The notes: a model not told the origin generated them from the letters alone. A stretch of DNA of 64,000 bases from an uncultured Candidatus Saccharibacteria bacterium (GCA_964626705.1 CAZVGL010000003.1:6543-70542); one strand, 5' to 3'; numbered from the stretch's first letter, positions 24,163-31,501 are shown. Translations and numbers: made by a program.

Positions 24163-24618
24163 CTATTTTTCTTTTTTTATCTCCTTTACTTCATCTGCAA
24201 GAGATATTGGTTTTTCTTCTGCTTGTTCAGCTTCAGGATGAGATTCTTTTTCAAAGAATACTTTTACTTTATCAATAATCTCAGATACTGCATGCTGAGA
24301 CTTTACAATATAATCATTTGCACCAAGCTTTAGTCCTTTTTTTATATCTTCGTCACTTCCAAGCATTGTAAGCATTATTACAGGAATATCTTTTGTAACA
24401 GGAGATTTTTTTAATCCTTCTAATACCTCAAATCCTCCTTTTTTAGGCATTAGTACATCAGAAAGTATAAGATCTGGTTTTTTGGACTGAGCTAATTCAA
24501 GTCCTTTTTCACCATCATTTGCTTCTGATACCTCAAAACCAGCTTCTTTAAGCTCTTCATGTATAACTTTTGACAATATTTTGTCGTCTTCAATAAGTAA
24601 AATTTTAATTTTAGTCAT
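24163..24618 (-). CDS. Stand-alone receiver-domain protein with a short acidic C-terminal tail
   Basis: Receiver fold (LLIEDD...DLILSDVLMPKKGG...K). 151 aa, no DNA-binding domain. Confidence 0.8.
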   Translation of the reverse strand: MTKIKILLIEDDKILSKVIHEELKEAGFEVSEANDGEKGLELAQSKKPDLILSDVLMPKKGGFEVLEGLKKSPVTKDIPVIMLTMLGSDEDIKKGLKLGANDYIVKSQHAVSEIIDKVKVFFEKESHPEAEQAEEKPISLADEVKEIKKEK

Positions 24619-25054: not shown

Positions 25055-27547
25055 CTATAGCAAATCTTTCCCGCCCTCACTCTTTTTTATTTCAATAGGT
25101 AGTTCAATGTAAAATGTAGTACCTTTACCTTCATGCGAGATAAAGTCTATTTTGCCACCAAGTGCTTCTGTTGCACTTTTTGCTATATATAGACCAAGTC
25201 CCGTACCGTCTGTTTTTACAACTTTTGCATTGTCTGCTCTGTGGAACTTTTCAAACATTCTTGACTGCTCTTTTTCCGGTATCCCGATTCCAGTATCTTT
25301 TACTTTTATCATGACGTCACTATTTTTTTCAACACATACCTCTATAGATCCAGATTCTGGAGTATATTCTATTGCATTGGACACTATAGACTGTATTACA
25401 TTGCGCAAAACTTTTGGATCACTTTTTATTTCAAAATTATCTGGATGATCTTCAAATTTTAATGTTATATTCTTTTTTACCAAAAGTGGTGTTAATTCTC
25501 CTAAATAATCTTCAATGAATTTTATTAGGTCTAATTTTTCTGGTGTTACAGCAACACCTCCTCCGCTTTCAATCCTAGAAACGTTAAGTAAAGAGTCTAC
25601 AAGTTCTGACAACCTCACAGATGAAGTGTGTAGATCTTTAAGGTATTCTTTCCCTTGATCACTTAGACCAATTTCTTTTTTCAAAAACCTTTCGATCACC
25701 CATTGTATACCAGTCATAGGTGTACGAAGTTGATGCGATGCTACAGATATAAATTCACTTTTCGCACGGTCTATCTCTCTTTCTTTTGTTATATCTCTAA
25801 ACACTACAATACAACCAGTAACATTTCCGTTCTTATCTTTAAGTGGGGCCGCACTATCCGCTACTGGTATTTTCCTCCCATCTCTTTGTATCAACATTGT
25901 ATTAGATGGCATCTTTTGGTTTGTACCAGTACTCATTACATCCTCGATGAACTCAGTATTTATTTTTGTAGGATCTTTTTCATCTATAAATTTAAGTATT
26001 TTATTGTACGGCTTGCCTATAACTTCACCTCGTTTAAACCCTGAAATCTTCTCTGCTTGGGAGTTAAATACGATAATATTACGATTTCTATCTACTACAA
26101 ACACACCGTCGCCAATGTTGTGTAGAATAGAACTAACTTTTTCTTCTTCAAGGTCTGCTTTATCTTTCTCATCTTTTATATCTTCAAGAATATTAAGTAT
26201 GGCCATCTGCTGTGTCTCAAGTTTTCCCTTTTGATCCGTAATATTGTCAGTTTGATCATTAACCTTTTTTTCAATATTTCCACGCGAATCTTTTATAGAT
26301 GCTGCCATATTATTGAACGAATCACCCAACTTCCCTATTTCATCTACAGAATCAATGTTAACCCTATAGTCCAAATCTCCTTTTTCTAAAATTTTAGTAC
26401 CTTCATAAAGTTTTTCAATTGGCCCTGATATTTTCCTAGAAATAAAATATGCAAATATTATTATCAGAAACAAAGATCCAAAACTAATAAGGATCAGAGT
26501 ATTCCTTAAGTTTGTAACAGGCGCCAATATTACTTCCCTAGGTATTATTTCAAATATCACAAAGAAAGACTCATCACTAAAACTGCTTGGAAACACTTGT
26601 TTATAAGCAATAGCGTGATTATGTTTTGGCATATCAACAGAGTCAGCACCACCAGATAGAATGATGTCTGCCATTCCAGATTGTAGATTATTACTAATAT
26701 TATGCCCCGTATTTAAATCCCCTTCATTTCCCCACTCCTTATCCTTTTGTGGATGTGCAATATAAAAACCTCTTTCATCTACAATAAATTTACCTACATT
26801 ATCATAATCAATATCATTCTCTTTATAAGAATGCTTAAATTCATTTAGAAAACTATCAGCATTTATATTTGTTATTACAACCCCCTTTCTATTACCACTA
26901 TTGTCAAATATTGGTGTAGCATACCTTATTGTTGGCTTAAAAGGCGATTCTATCTCTGCCAAAATACCCTCTCTATTAAGATCTAACGGAGATACAAAAA
27001 TATTACCTCGGTCTAGTTTCATAGTATCTTTAAAATAATATCTATTAGCTTTGTTTTGTAGATTTTCTATTGAAATGATTTCGGCAGCACCATCTCTAGA
27101 ATCTACACGCACAAGCTCATTTCCATTTTCATCCAAATACCTTATTTGCATATATGCCTTATTGGATGAGGCTATTTCCATAAATATAGTTCCAAGTCTT
27201 GATGTCCATTGTTCATAAGTTGACACACCTTCAGTATCAATACCATTATTTTTATTTGCACGTATTATTCCTTGAATTGGTGGCACACCACCTAAAAACA
27301 AGACCTCTCTTTCTAGACCACTTAACACCTGATTTATCTTGTTCACATGTTGATCTACATCAACTTCAAGTTCACTCAATGTCTTGTCGAGCAGTATATT
27401 ACTTGATGAATAGAAACTAAAAAACCCAGACGTAATAAGTGGTATTATTGCAACTACTAAAAACGTAAAAAGTAATTTTCTATTTATGGAACTAAAGAAA
27501 AAATTCCTTAAGGCTAAACGTAGTTTTTTGTAGACTTTTTTTGGCAC
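25055..27547 (-). CDS. Sensor histidine kinase with a double-Cache-like periplasmic domain, HAMP, PAS, HisKA and HATPase domains
   Basis: Two TM segments flank a roughly 300-aa extracytoplasmic domain. HAMP motif (GDLDYRV...DEIGKLGDSFNNM). PAS region. H-box SHQLRTPMTGI. G-boxes DTGIGIP / GTGLGL. Confidence 0.85.
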   Translation of the reverse strand: MPKKVYKKLRLALRNFFFSSINRKLLFTFLVVAIIPLITSGFFSFYSSSNILLDKTLSELEVDVDQHVNKINQVLSGLEREVLFLGGVPPIQGIIRANKNNGIDTEGVSTYEQWTSRLGTIFMEIASSNKAYMQIRYLDENGNELVRVDSRDGAAEIISIENLQNKANRYYFKDTMKLDRGNIFVSPLDLNREGILAEIESPFKPTIRYATPIFDNSGNRKGVVITNINADSFLNEFKHSYKENDIDYDNVGKFIVDERGFYIAHPQKDKEWGNEGDLNTGHNISNNLQSGMADIILSGGADSVDMPKHNHAIAYKQVFPSSFSDESFFVIFEIIPREVILAPVTNLRNTLILISFGSLFLIIIFAYFISRKISGPIEKLYEGTKILEKGDLDYRVNIDSVDEIGKLGDSFNNMAASIKDSRGNIEKKVNDQTDNITDQKGKLETQQMAILNILEDIKDEKDKADLEEEKVSSILHNIGDGVFVVDRNRNIIVFNSQAEKISGFKRGEVIGKPYNKILKFIDEKDPTKINTEFIEDVMSTGTNQKMPSNTMLIQRDGRKIPVADSAAPLKDKNGNVTGCIVVFRDITKEREIDRAKSEFISVASHQLRTPMTGIQWVIERFLKKEIGLSDQGKEYLKDLHTSSVRLSELVDSLLNVSRIESGGGVAVTPEKLDLIKFIEDYLGELTPLLVKKNITLKFEDHPDNFEIKSDPKVLRNVIQSIVSNAIEYTPESGSIEVCVEKNSDVMIKVKDTGIGIPEKEQSRMFEKFHRADNAKVVKTDGTGLGLYIAKSATEALGGKIDFISHEGKGTTFYIELPIEIKKSEGGKDLL

Positions 27548-27567: not shown

Positions 27568-27864
27568 TTAGAAAACACCCCAATAACTATATACGCCAGC
27601 TTCTTCGGACTCAATCCTGATTTGAAAAGATGATTTTATATGAATAAATTCATCATAGAAATCCAAGATATGCTCCCTTATGGCTCCTTCATCTTTGTAT
27701 TTATCCATAAAACCGATTACGATATTTTCTATATCACGCATCTCAGAAATAAACTTTTCTGTATTAGATGTATCAGTACCTCTTTCTTTCATATCTTTTA
27801 CAAGCTCAATATAAAACACCTCATCTTCTAATTTTACATGTGACGTAAAATTACTTGAAAACAT
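27568..27864 (-). CDS. Hypothetical protein (98 aa); the preceding 35-codon ORF at 27900-28008 carries a hemerythrin-like GQHNTL motif
   Basis: Coding-like composition. Only a weak resemblance to hemerythrin; the fragment may be decayed. Confidence 0.25.
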   Translation of the reverse strand: MFSSNFTSHVKLEDEVFYIELVKDMKERGTDTSNTEKFISEMRDIENIVIGFMDKYKDEGAIREHILDFYDEFIHIKSSFQIRIESEEAGVYSYWGVF

Positions 27865-28012
27865 ATTAAGACTTATAAGAATATTCGAGGCATTCTCAAT
27901 CTTTTTTTTCTTTGGAAAAGTCTAAAATCGTATCAACATTTTTCCTTAAAGTATTATGTTGACCCATCAACTTCTCAATAAGATCTTTTTTTTCTTTTAT
28001 AATCATAGTTAT

Positions 28013-29338
28013 TTATAATTTATTATCTTCGATTTTAGTCTCTAGGTCAACTATCTTCTTTTTTAATTCTATCATCTTGATCTCTCTTCCTGCCATAGCG
28101 CTAGAGACTTCTTGTGCTTGCTTCACCGCAACCTCTGCTTGCTCCTGTCTTTTTGTAATCTCTTTTGTTTGTTCCTTTATTTTACGATCAACATCTTTTC
28201 TTGACTCTTTTATTGCAATAATCATCTTATCAAAAGATCGAGCAAGTCCACCTATCTCATCCTTAGAGTCACTATTTATTTTATAACTTAAATCTCCACC
28301 CTCAACCTTTTTTACAGCATCTTGAAGATCTCTTAGCGGTTTCATAAATAAAGATATTAAATAAGTCAGAGACATTATTGCAAAAAGTGCAGCGATCAGC
28401 ACAAACCCACTTAAAATATATGCAAGATTATACGAAGAAGAGACAGCTTCTTCAACATTTCTACTGATGATTAGAAAAAATGGATATTCTTCAACCTTAA
28501 CCATGCTAGCAATCTCACTCTTTTTATCCATATCATCATAAATTTCGAATGTTTGCGTGTCATTTATGGTGTATATATTTTGTTGTAATAAGTCATAACC
28601 AAGTGGCTTTATGTCTATTCCTGAAAATCTCCTACCCTCCTCTAGAATCTTTTGCTCCTTAACACCTAACTGTCCGAGACTACTAAATAGTCTATTCTCT
28701 TTATTAGAAAAGATTACTACACCATAATTATCCGTCATCATTACCTGAAGATCTTCCTCGCTTCTACGCGTAGAGACAGAGTTAGAAATCACCTCTGGTT
28801 TTAATTTAGTAACAGCTACCCCAACAATTTGACCATCCTTATTCTTCACAGGATGAGCAAAATAATATCCAAGCTTGCTACTTGTAACACCTAAGACAAC
28901 ATCTGTTGTAAATTTCCCAGTTAGAGCATTTTTGAAGTAATTTCTAAATCCATAATTTTTTCCTACAAAACTTTCATCCGTAGATGCAACAGTGGTACCA
29001 TCTGGAAGCATTAAGTATATTGCAGAATATATATCTCCAATATTATGCTCCTGTAGCTCTTGAAGTATATAGAGCTCTTGATGTTCTTCTGCTCCAGAAT
29101 CCATATATTCTACAACCTCTTCACGTTGAGATATATTTTTCACAGTAAGACTAATCTGATTGAGTATTTGCGTTGTATTGTGAGCAATACCTGAAGATAA
29201 AATATTTAAATCTTGCTCTGACCTTTCCCTAATCTCATTTCTTGAATAGAAAAATACGGAAACAACAGCCAACCCACCGAAAACAAAGATAATAAGTGTT
29301 ATAGATAGAATTATTTTATTTTTTAATGAAATCTGCAT
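28013..29338 (-). CDS. Membrane sensor-like protein with a Cache-like extracytoplasmic domain, TM, HAMP and a C-terminal coiled-coil but no output domain
   Basis: HAMP motif GDLSYKINSDSKDEIGGLARSFDKM, paralogous to the HAMP of the kinase at 25055-27547. The C-terminal motif AGREIKMIELKKKIVDLE is shared with 30206-31501. Confidence 0.6.
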   Translation of the reverse strand: MQISLKNKIILSITLIIFVFGGLAVVSVFFYSRNEIRERSEQDLNILSSGIAHNTTQILNQISLTVKNISQREEVVEYMDSGAEEHQELYILQELQEHNIGDIYSAIYLMLPDGTTVASTDESFVGKNYGFRNYFKNALTGKFTTDVVLGVTSSKLGYYFAHPVKNKDGQIVGVAVTKLKPEVISNSVSTRRSEEDLQVMMTDNYGVVIFSNKENRLFSSLGQLGVKEQKILEEGRRFSGIDIKPLGYDLLQQNIYTINDTQTFEIYDDMDKKSEIASMVKVEEYPFFLIISRNVEEAVSSSYNLAYILSGFVLIAALFAIMSLTYLISLFMKPLRDLQDAVKKVEGGDLSYKINSDSKDEIGGLARSFDKMIIAIKESRKDVDRKIKEQTKEITKRQEQAEVAVKQAQEVSSAMAGREIKMIELKKKIVDLETKIEDNKL

Positions 29339-29349
29339 TGTAACTTTTT

Positions 29350-29766
29350 TTAAGACAAACCATTGTCAGTGAATGTTTCTATATACCCCATATCTTCATT
29401 TAAGATGTGGCCAATCCACCAATCTTCTAAGAAATCTAACACTTCAAAGAGAAAGCTCGTCATTGCCCCATCTCCCAGAGTATTAATTTTTTCTTGAAAT
29501 TCTCCTATTTTTGTCCTGTAACTATTGTGACTTTCCTTATGCTTATCAGAGTCAGCATAATTAAATTGATCAAAATACTTTTCTTCAGTCTTAAAATGAT
29601 AATTAGCATAATCATTAAGACCTCCAATCAGCTTGAGCGCTTCTTCTCTAGGTCCATTGTTTTTAATAAGCTCGTCCATAGCATTTAAGAATCCAAACAA
29701 CTTCTGATGCTGTTCATTGATCTCTTTAACCTTTACACTATATTCTTCTTTCCATTCTAATTTCAT
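29350..29766 (-). CDS. Bacteriohemerythrin (single-domain hemerythrin-like protein)
   Basis: MKLEWKEEY...INEQHQKLF N-terminus. HF(K)TEE...H...H and FLEDWWIGHILNEDMGY match the H/HxxxE/HxxxH/HxxxxD diiron ligands. Confidence 0.75.
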   Translation of the reverse strand: MKLEWKEEYSVKVKEINEQHQKLFGFLNAMDELIKNNGPREEALKLIGGLNDYANYHFKTEEKYFDQFNYADSDKHKESHNSYRTKIGEFQEKINTLGDGAMTSFLFEVLDFLEDWWIGHILNEDMGYIETFTDNGLS

Positions 29767-29774
29767 ATTATCTA

Positions 29775-30191
29775 TTACACTAATCCGTTATCATTAAATG
29801 TTTTTGTATACTCTTTATCTTTATGTAAGATATGTCCCACCCACCAGTCCTCAAGAAAATCTAACATTTCAAATGCTAGCTTGATCGCATCACCACCGTT
29901 TAACTCAGCTACTTTTTTCTCAAAATCTATTACCTTATCCATATAGTCATGGTGACGTTTTTTATGATCTTCTTTGTCCTCATAATCAAACTGGTCAAAG
30001 TACTTTTCTTCTGTTGCAAAATGAAACTTTGCATAGTCATTTAAGTTGTCTATCGTAGCAGTTAATCCTTCTTTTGCATTATCTGAATGAGTTGAATTAT
30101 CAAGTTCATTAATAAAACCTATAATTTTTTTATGTTGATTGTTTATTTCTTCAACACCAACACCATATTCTTCTTTCCATTCTAATTTCAT
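29775..30191 (-). CDS. Bacteriohemerythrin (tandem paralogue)
   Basis: MKLEWKEEYGVGVEEINNQHKKII...HFATEEKYF...HHDY...DWWVGHILHKDKEY, the same ligand pattern as the neighbouring gene. Confidence 0.75.
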   Translation of the reverse strand: MKLEWKEEYGVGVEEINNQHKKIIGFINELDNSTHSDNAKEGLTATIDNLNDYAKFHFATEEKYFDQFDYEDKEDHKKRHHDYMDKVIDFEKKVAELNGGDAIKLAFEMLDFLEDWWVGHILHKDKEYTKTFNDNGLV

Positions 30192-30205
30192 ATTATTTTA
30201 TTAAA

Positions 30206-31501
30206 TTAATTATTATTTTTGTCTTTTAAATCAGCGATCTCTTTCTTGAGTTCAATCATCTTTAACTCCCTACCTGTCATAGCATCGTTCATAGCCTCTG
30301 CGCGCTCTATTGCATTATCAGCTTCTTTTTTCTTCTCTAAGACCACTTCTGTTTGTTCTTTTACTTTTTGGTCGATCTCTCTTTGTGATTTCTTGATAGC
30401 TAATGTCATTTTATCAAATTCCCTAGACAAGTCACCTAATTCATCTTTATATGTAGTACCTACTTTATAATTTAAATCTCCTTTTCCTATGATACTTGCC
30501 CCTTCGCTTAATACCCTTATCCTTCTAGATAAAAAATTAACAAGATATATACTTAAGAATATTGTTACGAAAAGTATTCCAACCATACCAAGCACTGCAA
30601 ATTGCAGTTTTTTATTTATCTCTTTTTTCAATAAGTCAGCCCTCTTTATAATATCAACCAGTATTTTATTAGCGGTGTCTTGCATCAGATCAATTCTAGC
30701 TGTCGCAGACAGAAACCAATGTAAGGCATCTATATTAAAGTCTTCAGTTCTTGAAAATGCAATTTCTCTAATACGCTCCGCTTCATTTACAGAAGGGTCA
30801 GACATCCTTTCTTTAAAGAAATCAATCTGTTCTTGGTTCGCATACCAAGTAAATGCATCAAAATATATATCCTGTGAATGAACTAGGAATAGAAACCTGG
30901 CTTCTGCACCATCACCAAACATATCTGAAGCGAAAGTGTTTGTCATTAATGCCCTTTCTTCCCCTGCTTTTTCTTTACCTTCTATAAAGATAATATATGC
31001 ATTTATATCTTCTGTTAGCTTTACGTCAGGGCTCGTCTGCGATGACACCAGTCTGACCACATCTAACATCTTACTGTTATGCTGGGTATAGAAATCTATA
31101 CCTTCAGAATCTGAAATACTAAGCCCACTTATCTGTGCTCTTAATTCAGAAAGTTTATTGTATTCTGCAAATGCAATATTAAATATATTTACAAACTTTT
31201 CTCCAAAATCTTCAGGATTAAAAGTATTTAAGAATACATCTAGACTCCTTCTTTTTACATTAGTAAGTTGCCTTTGATCACGAAGTACATCTACAAACTC
31301 TGCTCCATCACTCCCCATAAACCCTCCCGTAGCACCACGCTCTTTTTGCATTTCATGGACATACTCGCCAACCTTTGAAGATAGTTGGGACACTTGCTCA
31401 AGAGGTCTTAACTCTTTTAAAATATTTAATTGCTCTGTAATCGTAGTTACAGAAAAATACAATATAAGAATAATTGGAACGACGACCAAAACTCCAAGCA
31501 C
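30206..31501 (-). CDS. Membrane protein with an N-terminal NIT (nitrate/nitrite-sensing-type) domain, TM, HAMP and C-terminal coiled-coil, without an output domain
   Basis: NIT-like motif YVHEMQKERGATGGFMGS...QRQLTN. HAMP motif GDLNYKV...DELGDLSREFDKM. C-terminal MTGRELKMIELKKEIADLK. Confidence 0.55.
   Translation of the reverse strand: MLGVLVVVPIILILYFSVTTITEQLNILKELRPLEQVSQLSSKVGEYVHEMQKERGATGGFMGSDGAEFVDVLRDQRQLTNVKRRSLDVFLNTFNPEDFGEKFVNIFNIAFAEYNKLSELRAQISGLSISDSEGIDFYTQHNSKMLDVVRLVSSQTSPDVKLTEDINAYIIFIEGKEKAGEERALMTNTFASDMFGDGAEARFLFLVHSQDIYFDAFTWYANQEQIDFFKERMSDPSVNEAERIREIAFSRTEDFNIDALHWFLSATARIDLMQDTANKILVDIIKRADLLKKEINKKLQFAVLGMVGILFVTIFLSIYLVNFLSRRIRVLSEGASIIGKGDLNYKVGTTYKDELGDLSREFDKMTLAIKKSQREIDQKVKEQTEVVLEKKKEADNAIERAEAMNDAMTGRELKMIELKKEIADLKDKNNN

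Follow-up and report, generated by a model that had tools for sequence, protein, structure and literature searches.

A stretch of 64,000 nucleotides (the window) from an uncultured Candidatus Saccharibacteria bacterium (GCA_964626705.1 CAZVGL010000003.1:6543-70542) contains a run of signalling genes on the minus strand: two sensor proteins without a kinase domain, three hemerythrin-family genes, a histidine kinase and two receiver-only response regulators (Table 1). A first-pass annotation of the sequence drew attention to the two kinase-less proteins, which it termed HAMP-only. It stated that they share a near-identical HAMP block with the neighbouring kinase and end in a common C-terminal motif, and suggested that they are sensor/HAMP modules detached from a kinase, which could plausibly signal by hetero-oligomerization with it or by recruiting a partner through the tail.

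Table 1. Features of the signalling locus, in window coordinates
Position	Strand	Feature	Supporting observations
30206-31501	minus	Sensor protein 1 (431 aa): TM, NIT (nitrate/nitrite-type) sensor, TM, HAMP, S-helix-like segment, C-terminal tail; no kinase or other output domain	Pfam NIT 1.4e-45 (aa 48-284); HAMP PF00672 (aa 320-369, 35.6 bits)
30209-30319	minus	Tail of sensor protein 1: ...AIERAEAMNDAMTGRELKMIELKKEIADLKDKNNN-stop	Motif RE[IL]KMIELK at 30245-30271; matches the family consensus xRTxELEKLNxxMVGRELKMIELKKEIxxLKxK
29775-30191	minus	Hemerythrin 1 (138 aa), stand-alone	Pfam PF01814, 5.9e-13, 49.9 bits
29350-29766	minus	Hemerythrin 2 (138 aa), stand-alone	Pfam PF01814, 6.7e-14, 52.9 bits
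28013-29338	minus	Sensor protein 2 (441 aa): TM, dCache_1, TM, HAMP, S-helix-like segment, C-terminal tail; no output domain	Pfam dCache_1; HAMP PF00672 (aa 327-376, 47.6 bits)
28016-28132	minus	Tail of sensor protein 2: ...VAVKQAQEVSSAMAGREIKMIELKKKIVDLETKIEDNKL-stop	Motif RE[IL]KMIELK at 28061-28087
27568-28006	minus	Third, hemerythrin-like gene (about 140 aa in homologues), split by a frameshift in an A8 run into ORFs of 36 aa (27896-28006) and 98 aa (27568-27864)	Three-frame translation; homologues in seven other loci
25055-27547	minus	Histidine kinase (830 aa): TM, dCache/HK_sensor, TM, HAMP, S-helix-like segment, LNILED motif, PAS, HisKA, HATPase	Pfam; same architecture as kinases downstream of tail genes in other loci
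26150-26221	minus	LNILED motif of the kinase (LETQQMAILNILEDIKDEKDKADL), between the S-helix-like segment and PAS; proposed docking site for the tails	HMM score 32 bits
24632-25012	minus	Receiver-only response regulator (126 aa)	Pfam Response_reg
24163-24618	minus	Receiver-only response regulator (151 aa)	Pfam Response_reg

The sensor genes and their neighbours

The observation itself holds: the shared block and the common tail are both present. However, the proteins are not HAMP-only, as each has a full extracytoplasmic sensor domain and two TM helices. Both HAMP scores exceed the 25-bit cut-off, and an AF2 model of sensor protein 2 (pLDDT 89.9) places helix 295–346 and a helix from residue 361 onwards around a connector, with residues 361–440 as one continuous helix. 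The two proteins are thus HAMP-domain transmembrane receptors. Over TM2, HAMP and tail they are 41% identical and 74% similar, but their sensor domains are unrelated. Neither has a HisKA/DHp or HATPase_c domain, and both end about 50 residues after HAMP; the JGI label of the 441-aa protein, 'C4-dicarboxylate-specific signal transduction histidine kinase', is therefore wrong. Neither is a methyl-accepting chemotaxis protein, as there is no MCPsignal (PF00015) hit, and true NIT-HAMP-MCP relatives (proteins P0055–P0068 of this analysis) are 625–712 aa long.

An alignment of the three HAMP regions, which the first-pass annotation had put forward as a check, shows the shared block GDL.Y(K/R)(I/V)...DE(I/L)G.L...F(D/N)(K/N)M...IK.S....(I/V)..K(I/V).(E/D)QT. 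This is largely the generic HAMP consensus (DEIG.L...FN.M) plus an ERT-type signature of the signaling helix (S-helix), and by itself it is not special. The tail protein and the kinase are 38% identical over 116 aa. With respect to the S-helix signature, the consensus of the tail family has ERT, whereas the window proteins have EQT and the kinase DQT; no S-helix model exists in the libraries searched, and the assignment of these segments is left undecided. The other defining property of the S-helix, a position between two signalling domains with transmission from the upstream one to the downstream one, is absent in the two sensor proteins, as nothing follows the helix.

Only two close homologues (P0049 and P0050) share the architecture of the NIT protein, and P0051 is a fused NIT-HAMP-HisKA-HATPase form. 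Sensor protein 2 has about 35 full-length homologues of 412–445 aa (30–67% identity), nearly all of which end in the same tail. A covalently fused relative also exists: P0024, a dCache-HAMP-PAS-HisKA-HATPase protein, is 37% identical over residues 3–407. This supports the view that the proteins are sensor modules detached from a kinase.

The two intact hemerythrins score well above the cut-off of 25.3 bits. For the third, frameshifted gene only the homologues were scored (36.9–40 bits); these come from loci L005, L007, L013, L022, L066, L080 and L083 (L numbers denote the genome loci compared here) and always lie between the tail gene and the kinase. The 98-aa ORF was also considered as a homologue of the C-terminal extension of about 90 aa seen in P0014, P0172, P0270, P0272 and P0275, but no significant similarity was found; it is instead a hemerythrin-like gene fragment, as in P0116. 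Hemerythrin genes recur beside tail genes in other loci, and one to four REC-only genes follow the kinase in most related loci. Elsewhere in the window, the two 568-aa ORFs and the 431/433-aa ORF pair were examined as possible duplications and found to be unrelated.

A conserved tail at the C-terminus

Each sensor protein ends about 20 residues after an almost identical AM(A/T)GRE(I/L)KMIELKK motif. RE[IL]KMIELK occurs exactly twice in all six frames of the window, and the proteins end 21 and 24 residues after the Arg. A word-indexed search with the 45-aa tail alone gave only four candidates and was uninformative. An exhaustive search with a 36-position profile finds 11,743 protein clusters (50% identity, E<=1e-3) among 1.84e9 representatives. 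The end of the profile match, for the last copy of the motif, lies within 15 residues of the C-terminus in 262 of 278 proteins (about 94%), and in all 118 ORFs that match the motif regular expression (from genome loci, repeat copies of this locus and the window) the motif starts 15–40 aa before the stop. The core residues R, E, M(+4) and K(+8) are 100% conserved in 173 distinct tails. In a 56-member alignment of the dCache-HAMP family (17–68% identity to the window protein), 8 of the 16 invariant or nearly invariant columns of the whole 441-aa protein lie in the 9-residue tail core. It had been stated in advance that the idea would fail if the motif were a generic low-complexity coiled coil not conserved in homologues, and this is clearly not the case.

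Domains found upstream of the tail in 103 proteins are HAMP (50), PAS (38) and dCache_1 (20), in addition to GAF, PocR, CHASE, CBS and REC. No catalytic output appears among the 25 most frequent of the 38 families matched. Pfam and NCBIfam scans of tails, tail-only miniproteins and LNILED kinases found no model that covers the tail or the kinase motif described below. PDB sequence searches with both motif profiles returned only designed coiled-coil peptides or nothing relevant, and full-text literature searches for the motif strings and for output-less sensors, split kinases and the S-helix found no description of either motif. Non-Patescibacteria members of the clusters that were looked up carry only generic annotations.

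The tail could be looked at as only a terminal S-helix-type homodimerization cap, the proteins then being decoy or scaffold receptors, or decaying remnants of kinases, with no specific output. The tail does continue the S-helix register: in sensor protein 2 the Arg of GRE lies 28 residues (four heptads) after the Q of the EQT signature, and is again in a 'd' position, whereas in most family members the spacing is 14 residues. AF2 shows a plain helix, and the weak PDB matches are to designed coiled coils. This explanation appears very unlikely, however. Thousands of clusters keep the same sequence and the same stop position, which is incompatible with decay, and a pseudogene or truncated kinase was rejected on the same grounds. 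The extra hydrophobic seam, the invariant polar R-E and the conserved Gly and Asn are not what a generic zipper needs, and the tight, often overlapping gene order with LNILED kinases would be left unexplained.

Gene order and a second motif in the kinases

In 80 genomes from many bacterial and archaeal phyla the tail gene typically sits directly upstream of a histidine kinase gene. Of 108 tail genes with room downstream, 51 are followed within 1.3 kb on the same strand by a kinase, many overlapping it or within 10 nt, and another 21 are followed by a further tail gene. About a quarter have no kinase within the flanks examined, and their neighbours are unrelated genes. The taxa include many Patescibacteria classes, Omnitrophota, Myxococcales, Acidimicrobiia, Desulfuromonadales, Thermodesulfovibrio, Methanosarcinales, Aenigmarchaeota and Woesearchaeota. 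It should be pointed out that many loci are from related Patescibacteria, and the counts are therefore not phylogenetically independent. In the window the dCache tail gene ends 466 nt upstream of the kinase, with the hemerythrin-like gene in between, as in seven other loci.

These kinases carry a second unannotated helix motif, LExQQxA(I/V)LNILEDVxEEKxK, which the first-pass annotation did not see and which is proposed as the link between the tail and the kinase. An HMM of the motif hits 38 of 51 adjacent kinases, against 2 of 17 other kinases in the same loci (Fisher p=6.8e-6), and both of these exceptions also sit in tail operons. It hits 0 of 112 tail proteins and 5 of 5756 other ORFs. Of the adjacent kinases 13 miss the HMM threshold; several of these have looser variants, but a handful show no recognisable variant (L023 2414-4627, L037, L062, L078, L031 and L050). 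A first alignment of the motif was too diverse for a scan of metagenomes, which was redone with eight closer sequences. In loci seeded only by A[IVT]LNILED[VI], 45 of 51 with upstream sequence have a tail gene directly upstream. A family of tail-bearing detached sensors is accordingly proposed, with a C-terminal N..M.GRE(L/I)KM(I/V)ELKK.I..L motif within about 15 residues of the stop, after an input domain, and encoded upstream of, and on the same strand as, a histidine kinase with the A(I/V)LNILED motif; both window proteins fit this description.

Some partner kinases have no sensor at all. These proteins of 292–383 aa consist of two to four tandem LNILED repeats with a 21-residue period, followed by DHp and CA, and each is preceded by a PAS...tail protein (L019, L047, L135, L139, L144, L149). 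A contrast between paralogues points the same way: the LNILED-bearing kinase P0031 has two tail genes upstream, whereas its relatives P0024 and P0038 lack LNILED and have no tail motif within 6 kb on either side.

Co-evolution, which had also been proposed beforehand as a test, was examined between the two motifs. The top APC-corrected charge-class pair out of 576 is the tail K of GRELKM against the kinase E that stands between the hyphens in EDVE-E-EK, with counts of 59 (+,−), 4 (−,+) and 0 (−,−) (Fisher p=1e-4). This covariation rests on six sequences from perhaps two or three lineages, with one counter-example (L148). Both motifs carry a second short hydrophobic seam beside the a/d core, and the AF2 model gives a straight terminal helix whose confidence falls in the tail, as expected for a partner-dependent segment.

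The interpretation offered in the first-pass annotation is thus partly supported. The conserved tail is the element that matters, and the neighbouring kinase is the likely partner, as the gene order is conserved in both search directions. The shared HAMP type, however, is not supported as the basis of the link. Mixed dimers or membrane arrays formed through the TM/HAMP/S-helix regions, with the tail only stabilizing the coiled coil, would fit the similarity of the three window proteins, all of which have two TM helices, and the paralogy of the dCache-HAMP tail family to the N-terminal half of dCache-HAMP-PAS kinases. Yet about half of tail proteins have no HAMP domain, many are soluble PAS, GAF or REC proteins or consist of the tail alone (46–110 aa), and several partner kinases lack TM and HAMP entirely. 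Hetero-oligomerization through HAMP therefore cannot be the general mechanism. The tail is the only element shared by all, and it is much more conserved than a mere stabilizer needs to be; this alternative is considered unlikely.

Another possibility is that the tail recruits the REC-only regulators, the hemerythrins or a core cellular machine such as the type IV pilus ATPase, and that linkage to the kinase reflects only a shared regulon. REC-only genes and, in some loci, hemerythrin and type IV pilus genes are also recurrent neighbours, P0116 fuses a hemerythrin-like domain directly after the tail, and, as noted, not all tail genes have a kinase nearby. However, hemerythrin and pilus genes are present in only a minority of loci, mostly Patescibacteria or unclassified contigs among those examined, whereas the kinase link holds across phyla and domains. 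REC domains also occur as the input domain of tail proteins (L012, L021, L023, L037, L062, L076). The LNILED co-occurrence, the paralogue contrast and the charge swap all point to the kinase, and this explanation also appears unlikely.

Proposed docking of sensors and comparison with known systems

The best explanation, held with moderate confidence, is that the two proteins are trans-acting sensor modules of the downstream histidine kinase. Each would sense its own ligand, a nitrate/nitrite-type signal through NIT and an unknown small molecule through dCache, and pass the signal through TM2 and HAMP into one long helix made of HAMP AS2, the S-helix and the tail. The last 30 or so residues (N..MVGRELKMIELKKEI..LK) would form a docking helix that packs against the complementary acidic segment LExQQxAILNILEDVxEEKxK of the kinase. 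The conformational state of the sensor would then modulate autophosphorylation and phosphotransfer to the REC-only regulators, with the kinase integrating its own dCache input and the two plug-in sensors. The computations establish the conservation and C-terminal position of the tail, its occurrence after input domains only, the order of tail, kinase and REC genes across phyla and both domains of life, the reciprocal co-occurrence of the two motifs and the existence of sensorless partner kinases. Contact between tail and LNILED, its geometry (possibly a four-helix bundle formed through the second hydrophobic seams) and the direction of regulation, activation or inhibition, are inferred; binding was not assayed, and only monomer structures were predicted. 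Docking on DHp/CA or on PAS instead of LNILED is not excluded for kinases that have those domains. The window has two tail proteins but only one LNILED copy, which leaves the stoichiometry unsettled, and the role of the interleaved hemerythrin-family genes is not explained. Should the proposal be correct, thousands of predicted proteins filed as 'HAMP domain-containing protein', 'PAS domain S-box protein', or wrongly as MCP or histidine kinase, which have an input domain but no recognisable output, acquire an output; kinases with no sensor acquire their inputs; and signal integration by one kinase becomes predictable from sequence.

A broader view, which is possible but tentative, is that the tail and the LNILED repeat are two halves of a portable 'connector code' for two-component signalling. 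Any input module ending in the GRELKMIELKKEI helix (HAMP, PAS, GAF, REC, PocR and others) could dock non-covalently on a kinase whose coiled-coil stalk carries one to four 21-residue repeats. Each repeat would be a docking site, and a single kinase could sum or gate several independently evolving sensors. This would be a previously unrecognised and widespread architecture in bacteria and archaea, a class I histidine-kinase counterpart of the MCP-CheA arrangement, especially suited to small genomes such as those of Patescibacteria and DPANN. The pair is short, about 35 plus 21 residues, and helical, and is therefore readily testable and attractive for the engineering of modular biosensors. It also gives a handle on signalling in uncultivated Patescibacteria and DPANN archaea, where the operon often lies next to type IV pilus genes.

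The S-helix (Anantharaman, Balaji and Aravind, 2006; PMC1592074) is a parallel coiled-coil segment of five heptads directly after HAMP or PAS, with a central ERT-type polar signature whose Arg sits in a core 'd' position. The GRE of the tail repeats this feature two or four heptads later. The S-helix links two domains within one polypeptide, and the present helix, which is the C-terminal end of the protein, would add an exception to that rule. The GRELKMIELKKEI block is an additional element, much more conserved, and tied to a partner motif on another protein.

In split histidine kinases (PMC3591291; Hik36-Hik43, PMC7656254) the functions of one sensor kinase are distributed over two polypeptides encoded side by side. 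In those modelled in PMC3591291 the catalytic activities of the kinase are divided between two proteins, whereas here the kinase core is intact and the split lies between the sensor/transducer and the kinase. Stand-alone regulators such as H-NOX with HnoK/HahK, and the small helical kinase regulators Sda, KipI and FixT, are separately encoded proteins that sit in the kinase operon and control a histidine kinase that may lack its own sensor. These use family-specific globular interfaces, and none is known to use a portable terminal helix shared by HAMP, PAS, GAF, REC and PocR sensors together with a matching repeatable motif in the kinase. In the stressosome, RsbR paralogues with variable N-terminal input domains share a conserved C-terminal docking module that controls the kinase RsbT, but that module is a STAS domain in a large icosahedral complex, the kinase is a serine kinase, and there is no sequence or fold relation.

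Chemoreceptors with CheW and CheA work alike, in that many different sensor-HAMP receptors share one conserved helical end that couples them to a kinase encoded in the same cluster, and several inputs converge on one soluble histidine kinase. JGI even labels the window NIT protein and several related tail proteins 'methyl-accepting chemotaxis protein'. Here, however, there is no CheW, CheA, CheR or CheB, the proposed coupling element is a single helix of about 35 aa instead of a 300-aa hairpin, and the kinase is a class I HisKA/HATPase enzyme.

Anatomy of the locus and the two sensor proteins

The genes of the locus all lie on the minus strand. The same arrangement is seen in independent metagenome assemblies of this organism, and relatives are labelled Patescibacteria.

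Features of the locus, in gene order
Feature	Coordinates	Strand	Length
NIT-TM-HAMP protein with C-terminal tail	31501-30206	-	431 aa
Stand-alone hemerythrin	30191-29775	-
Stand-alone hemerythrin	29766-29350	-
dCache_1-TM-HAMP protein with C-terminal tail	29338-28013	-	441 aa
Hemerythrin-like gene broken by a frameshift	28006-27568	-	36-aa and 98-aa ORFs
Run of eight A's within the hemerythrin-like gene	about 27901-27910
dCache-HAMP-PAS-HisKA-HATPase histidine kinase	27547-25055	-	830 aa
LNILED copy of the kinase	26150-26221
Receiver-only response regulator	25012-24632	-
Receiver-only response regulator	24618-24163	-

The observation made in the first-pass annotation, that two kinase-less receptor-like proteins share a C-terminal motif and the HAMP type of the neighbouring kinase, is confirmed. 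A three-way alignment reproduces the shared HAMP block, and the tail motif RE[IL]KMIELK occurs only twice in the six-frame translation of the window, at the ends of the two kinase-less proteins. These proteins are 41% identical from TM2 to the stop, although their sensor domains are unrelated. Two corrections are needed. The proteins were described as HAMP-only, but they are complete sensors. In addition, the HAMP block is essentially the generic HAMP signature plus an S-helix-type (E/D)QT signature, and the 38% identity over 116 aa between the tail protein and the kinase is ordinary for HAMP domains. It should be pointed out that the source annotations are misleading, as JGI calls the two proteins (28013-29338 and 30206-31501) ‘C4-dicarboxylate-specific signal transduction histidine kinase’ and ‘methyl-accepting chemotaxis protein’, yet neither has a kinase or an MCP signalling domain.

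Three hemerythrin-family genes are interleaved with the sensor and kinase genes. The third type, which is about 140 aa in length, sits between the tail gene and the kinase in seven other loci. In the window it is split by a frameshift inside the A-run, and the same sequence is present in independent assemblies (loci L001–L003); this could be a real pseudogene, slippage at the run, or a homopolymer error shared by the assemblies. Hemerythrin genes also recur next to or between tail-bearing sensor genes in loci L018, L063, L077, L114, L118, L134 and L137, and in one collected protein (P0116) a hemerythrin-like domain is fused directly after the tail. This suggests an O2, iron or NO input to the same kinase, but how these proteins take part is not explained and no mechanism is known.

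The tail as a large, unannotated family

Homologues of the 441-aa protein (about 35 proteins of 412–445 aa, with 30–67% identity) keep the kinase-less architecture, and almost all end in M.GRELKMIELKKEI..LK. A search with the NIT protein yielded about 90 further short sensor proteins with differing N-terminal domains (dCache, 4HB_MCP, CHASE4 or none recognised), which matched only through HAMP plus tail. A 36-position profile of the tail, searched exhaustively against 1.84 billion cluster representatives, gave 11,743 clusters at E<=1e-3. In 103 of the best hits the upstream domains are HAMP (50), PAS (38) and dCache_1 (20), as well as GAF, PocR, CHASE, CBS and REC, and no kinase, cyclase, MCP or other catalytic output appears among the 25 most frequent families. 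Many proteins of 46–110 aa consist of the motif alone. The motif is not covered by Pfam, NCBIfam or the PDB, nor by any paper found in a literature search confined to open-access text.

Among 278 tail-bearing proteins collected, the profile ends within 15 residues of the C-terminus in 262. The exceptions carry an extension of ~90 aa or a hemerythrin-like domain. The extension is conserved in a subgroup of proteins (P0014, P0172, P0270, P0272 and P0275; ..DGIKLEE.VI..L...Y......L......L..DS..H...LK.L) and has no Pfam match and no similarity to the hemerythrin-like gene. A second tail subtype continues as ...KEIN.L...LG.(P/E)P(R/K)Y before the stop, mostly on PAS-containing proteins (P0097, P0108, P0137, P0142, P0223, P0248 and P0278). 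Some proteins (P0162–P0165, P0184, P0196, P0256, P0297 and P0300) carry two tail motifs, one internal and one terminal, and look like fusions of two consecutive tail-sensor genes; in P0162 and P0163 the two tails are only 20–30 residues apart. In proteins with two copies the last copy is always terminal.

In an alignment of 56 family members, 8 of the 16 most conserved columns of the whole protein lie in the tail core. Over 173 distinct tails, R, E, M(+4) and K(+8) are invariant, and G(-1), N(-6), L(+2), E(+6) and L(+7) are 84–98% conserved. It had been stated at the outset that the proposal would fall if the motif proved to be a generic low-complexity coiled coil with no conservation in homologues, and these searches and alignments show that this is not the case.

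Gene order and a second conserved helix in the kinases

Four neighbourhoods of homologues (with the window) showed the tail gene immediately upstream of a PAS-HisKA-HATPase kinase and REC-only genes. A scan of one genome per GTDB species returned 80 loci. These are from many Patescibacteria classes, Omnitrophota, Myxococcales, Acidimicrobiia, Desulfuromonadaceae, Geobacteraceae, Smithellaceae, Thermodesulfovibrio and Melioribacter, and the archaeal loci are from Methanosarcinales, Aenigmarchaeota, Woesearchaeota, Nanoarchaeia and Hydrothermarchaeales. Of 108 tail genes with at least 900 bp downstream, 51 are followed on the same strand within 1.3 kb by a kinase, and about half of these overlap it or lie within 10 nt; 21 are followed by another tail gene, and 3 by a hemerythrin. 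About a quarter of tail genes have no kinase nearby, and their neighbours are unrelated. Many of the loci are related Patescibacteria, so the counts are not phylogenetically independent. In several Patescibacteria (locus L004, 1-6934; locus L156, 1468-4219; the neighbourhoods of proteins P0006 and P0103) the tail-sensor/kinase/REC operon lies next to type IV pilus genes, i.e. those for the PilB-like ATPase (MshEN plus T2SSE), the PilC-like T2SSF protein and pilins, and the REC-only regulators may therefore control pili. No pilus genes flank the operon in the window itself among the Pfam-annotated genes within about 10 kb on either side.

The adjacent kinases share a second conserved helix, LExQQxA(I/V)LNILEDVxEEKxK. 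An HMM of this motif hits 38/51 adjacent kinases and 2/17 other kinases in the same loci (p=6.8e-6), both of the latter also sitting in tail operons, together with 0/112 tail proteins and 5/5756 other ORFs. Several of the adjacent kinases that were missed carry looser variants such as LNLVDD, NVLDDL or INMMDD, although a few lack any LNILED-like segment. Tandem arrays of 3–7 tail-bearing sensor genes with PAS or REC inputs and a variant tail, (F)VGRELKMVELKERIRELE, are found beside hybrid kinases in Desulfuromonadaceae (L037, where the array reaches seven), Geobacteraceae (L062), Smithellaceae (L023) and Thermodesulfovibrio (L076); some of these kinases have a variant partner motif (LNLVDDL, MNIVEDL) and some have none recognisable. 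In the reverse direction, 68 metagenome loci were seeded only by A[IVT]LNILED[VI], and of 51 with at least 1 kb upstream of the kinase, 45 have a tail gene directly upstream.

Three further observations tie the two motifs together. The first is the existence of minimal systems, in which kinases of 292–383 aa have no sensor, TM, HAMP or PAS, and consist of 2–4 tandem LNILED repeats at 21-residue spacing, followed by DHp and CA. Each is preceded by a soluble PAS...tail protein (L019 from Methanosarcinales, L047 from Myxococcales, and L135, L139, L144 and L149), and these kinases have no visible source of input other than the tail protein.

The second is a contrast between paralogues. Three kinases (P0024, P0038 and P0031) belong to one dCache-HAMP-PAS family, and P0024 is 37% identical to the window tail protein across its whole sensor and HAMP. 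In P0024 and P0038 the S-helix runs straight into the PAS cap (KFQLAVENASDQ), and no tail motif occurs within 6 kb either side, whereas P0031 carries a ~35-residue LNILED insertion at that point and has two tail genes upstream.

The third is covariation. An unbiased charge-class mutual-information scan covered 24x24 columns over 87 distinct pairs. The top corrected pair is the tail Lys that precedes the Met in GRELKM with the kinase Glu set off by hyphens in EDVE-E-EK. Counts are (+,-) 59, (-,+) 4, (-,polar) 2, (+,+) 2 and (-,-) 0, with p=1e-4 when phylogeny is ignored; there are, however, few independent events. The window has K paired with D at these positions.

Interpretation and relation to known signalling elements

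The interpretation in the first-pass annotation is partly supported. It is right in spirit that these are detached sensors, thought to signal through the tail to the neighbouring kinase, but it is wrong about the importance of the HAMP type. The kinase of the window has its own dCache sensor and one LNILED copy, and the NIT-HAMP-tail and dCache-HAMP-tail proteins are most likely additional, non-covalently attached sensors that feed the same kinase and its two REC-only regulators. Both motifs show a short second hydrophobic seam beside the a/d core, formed by V(-2), L(+2) and I(+5) in the tail and by the two Leu of LNIL in the kinase. In addition, the tail is net basic and LNILED is net acidic. 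This fits helix-on-helix docking, for example a four-helix bundle of two kinase and two sensor helices. The conservation of the motifs, their co-occurrence and the gene order are shown by computation, but the contact between the tail and LNILED and its geometry are inference, and no interaction was tested. The motif pair appears to be an undescribed, widespread coupling device in two-component signalling, and is of high interest as it is directly testable.

Most members of the tail family have ERT.ELEKLN..MVGRE, which is an S-helix ERT signature followed 14 residues (two heptads) later by a second Arg in a ‘d’ position. The window proteins have EQT and a 28-residue spacing. An AF2 model of the 441-aa protein predicts residues 361–440 as one helix, with confidence falling to 45–64 in the last 30 residues. 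The S-helix was defined as lying ‘almost always between two signaling domains’ (PMC1592074), but here it ends the protein. Accessory or split sensor-kinase systems are already known, and the tail-bearing sensors can be looked at as a variant of these, with the pair of tail and LNILED motifs as the part that appears not to have been described.
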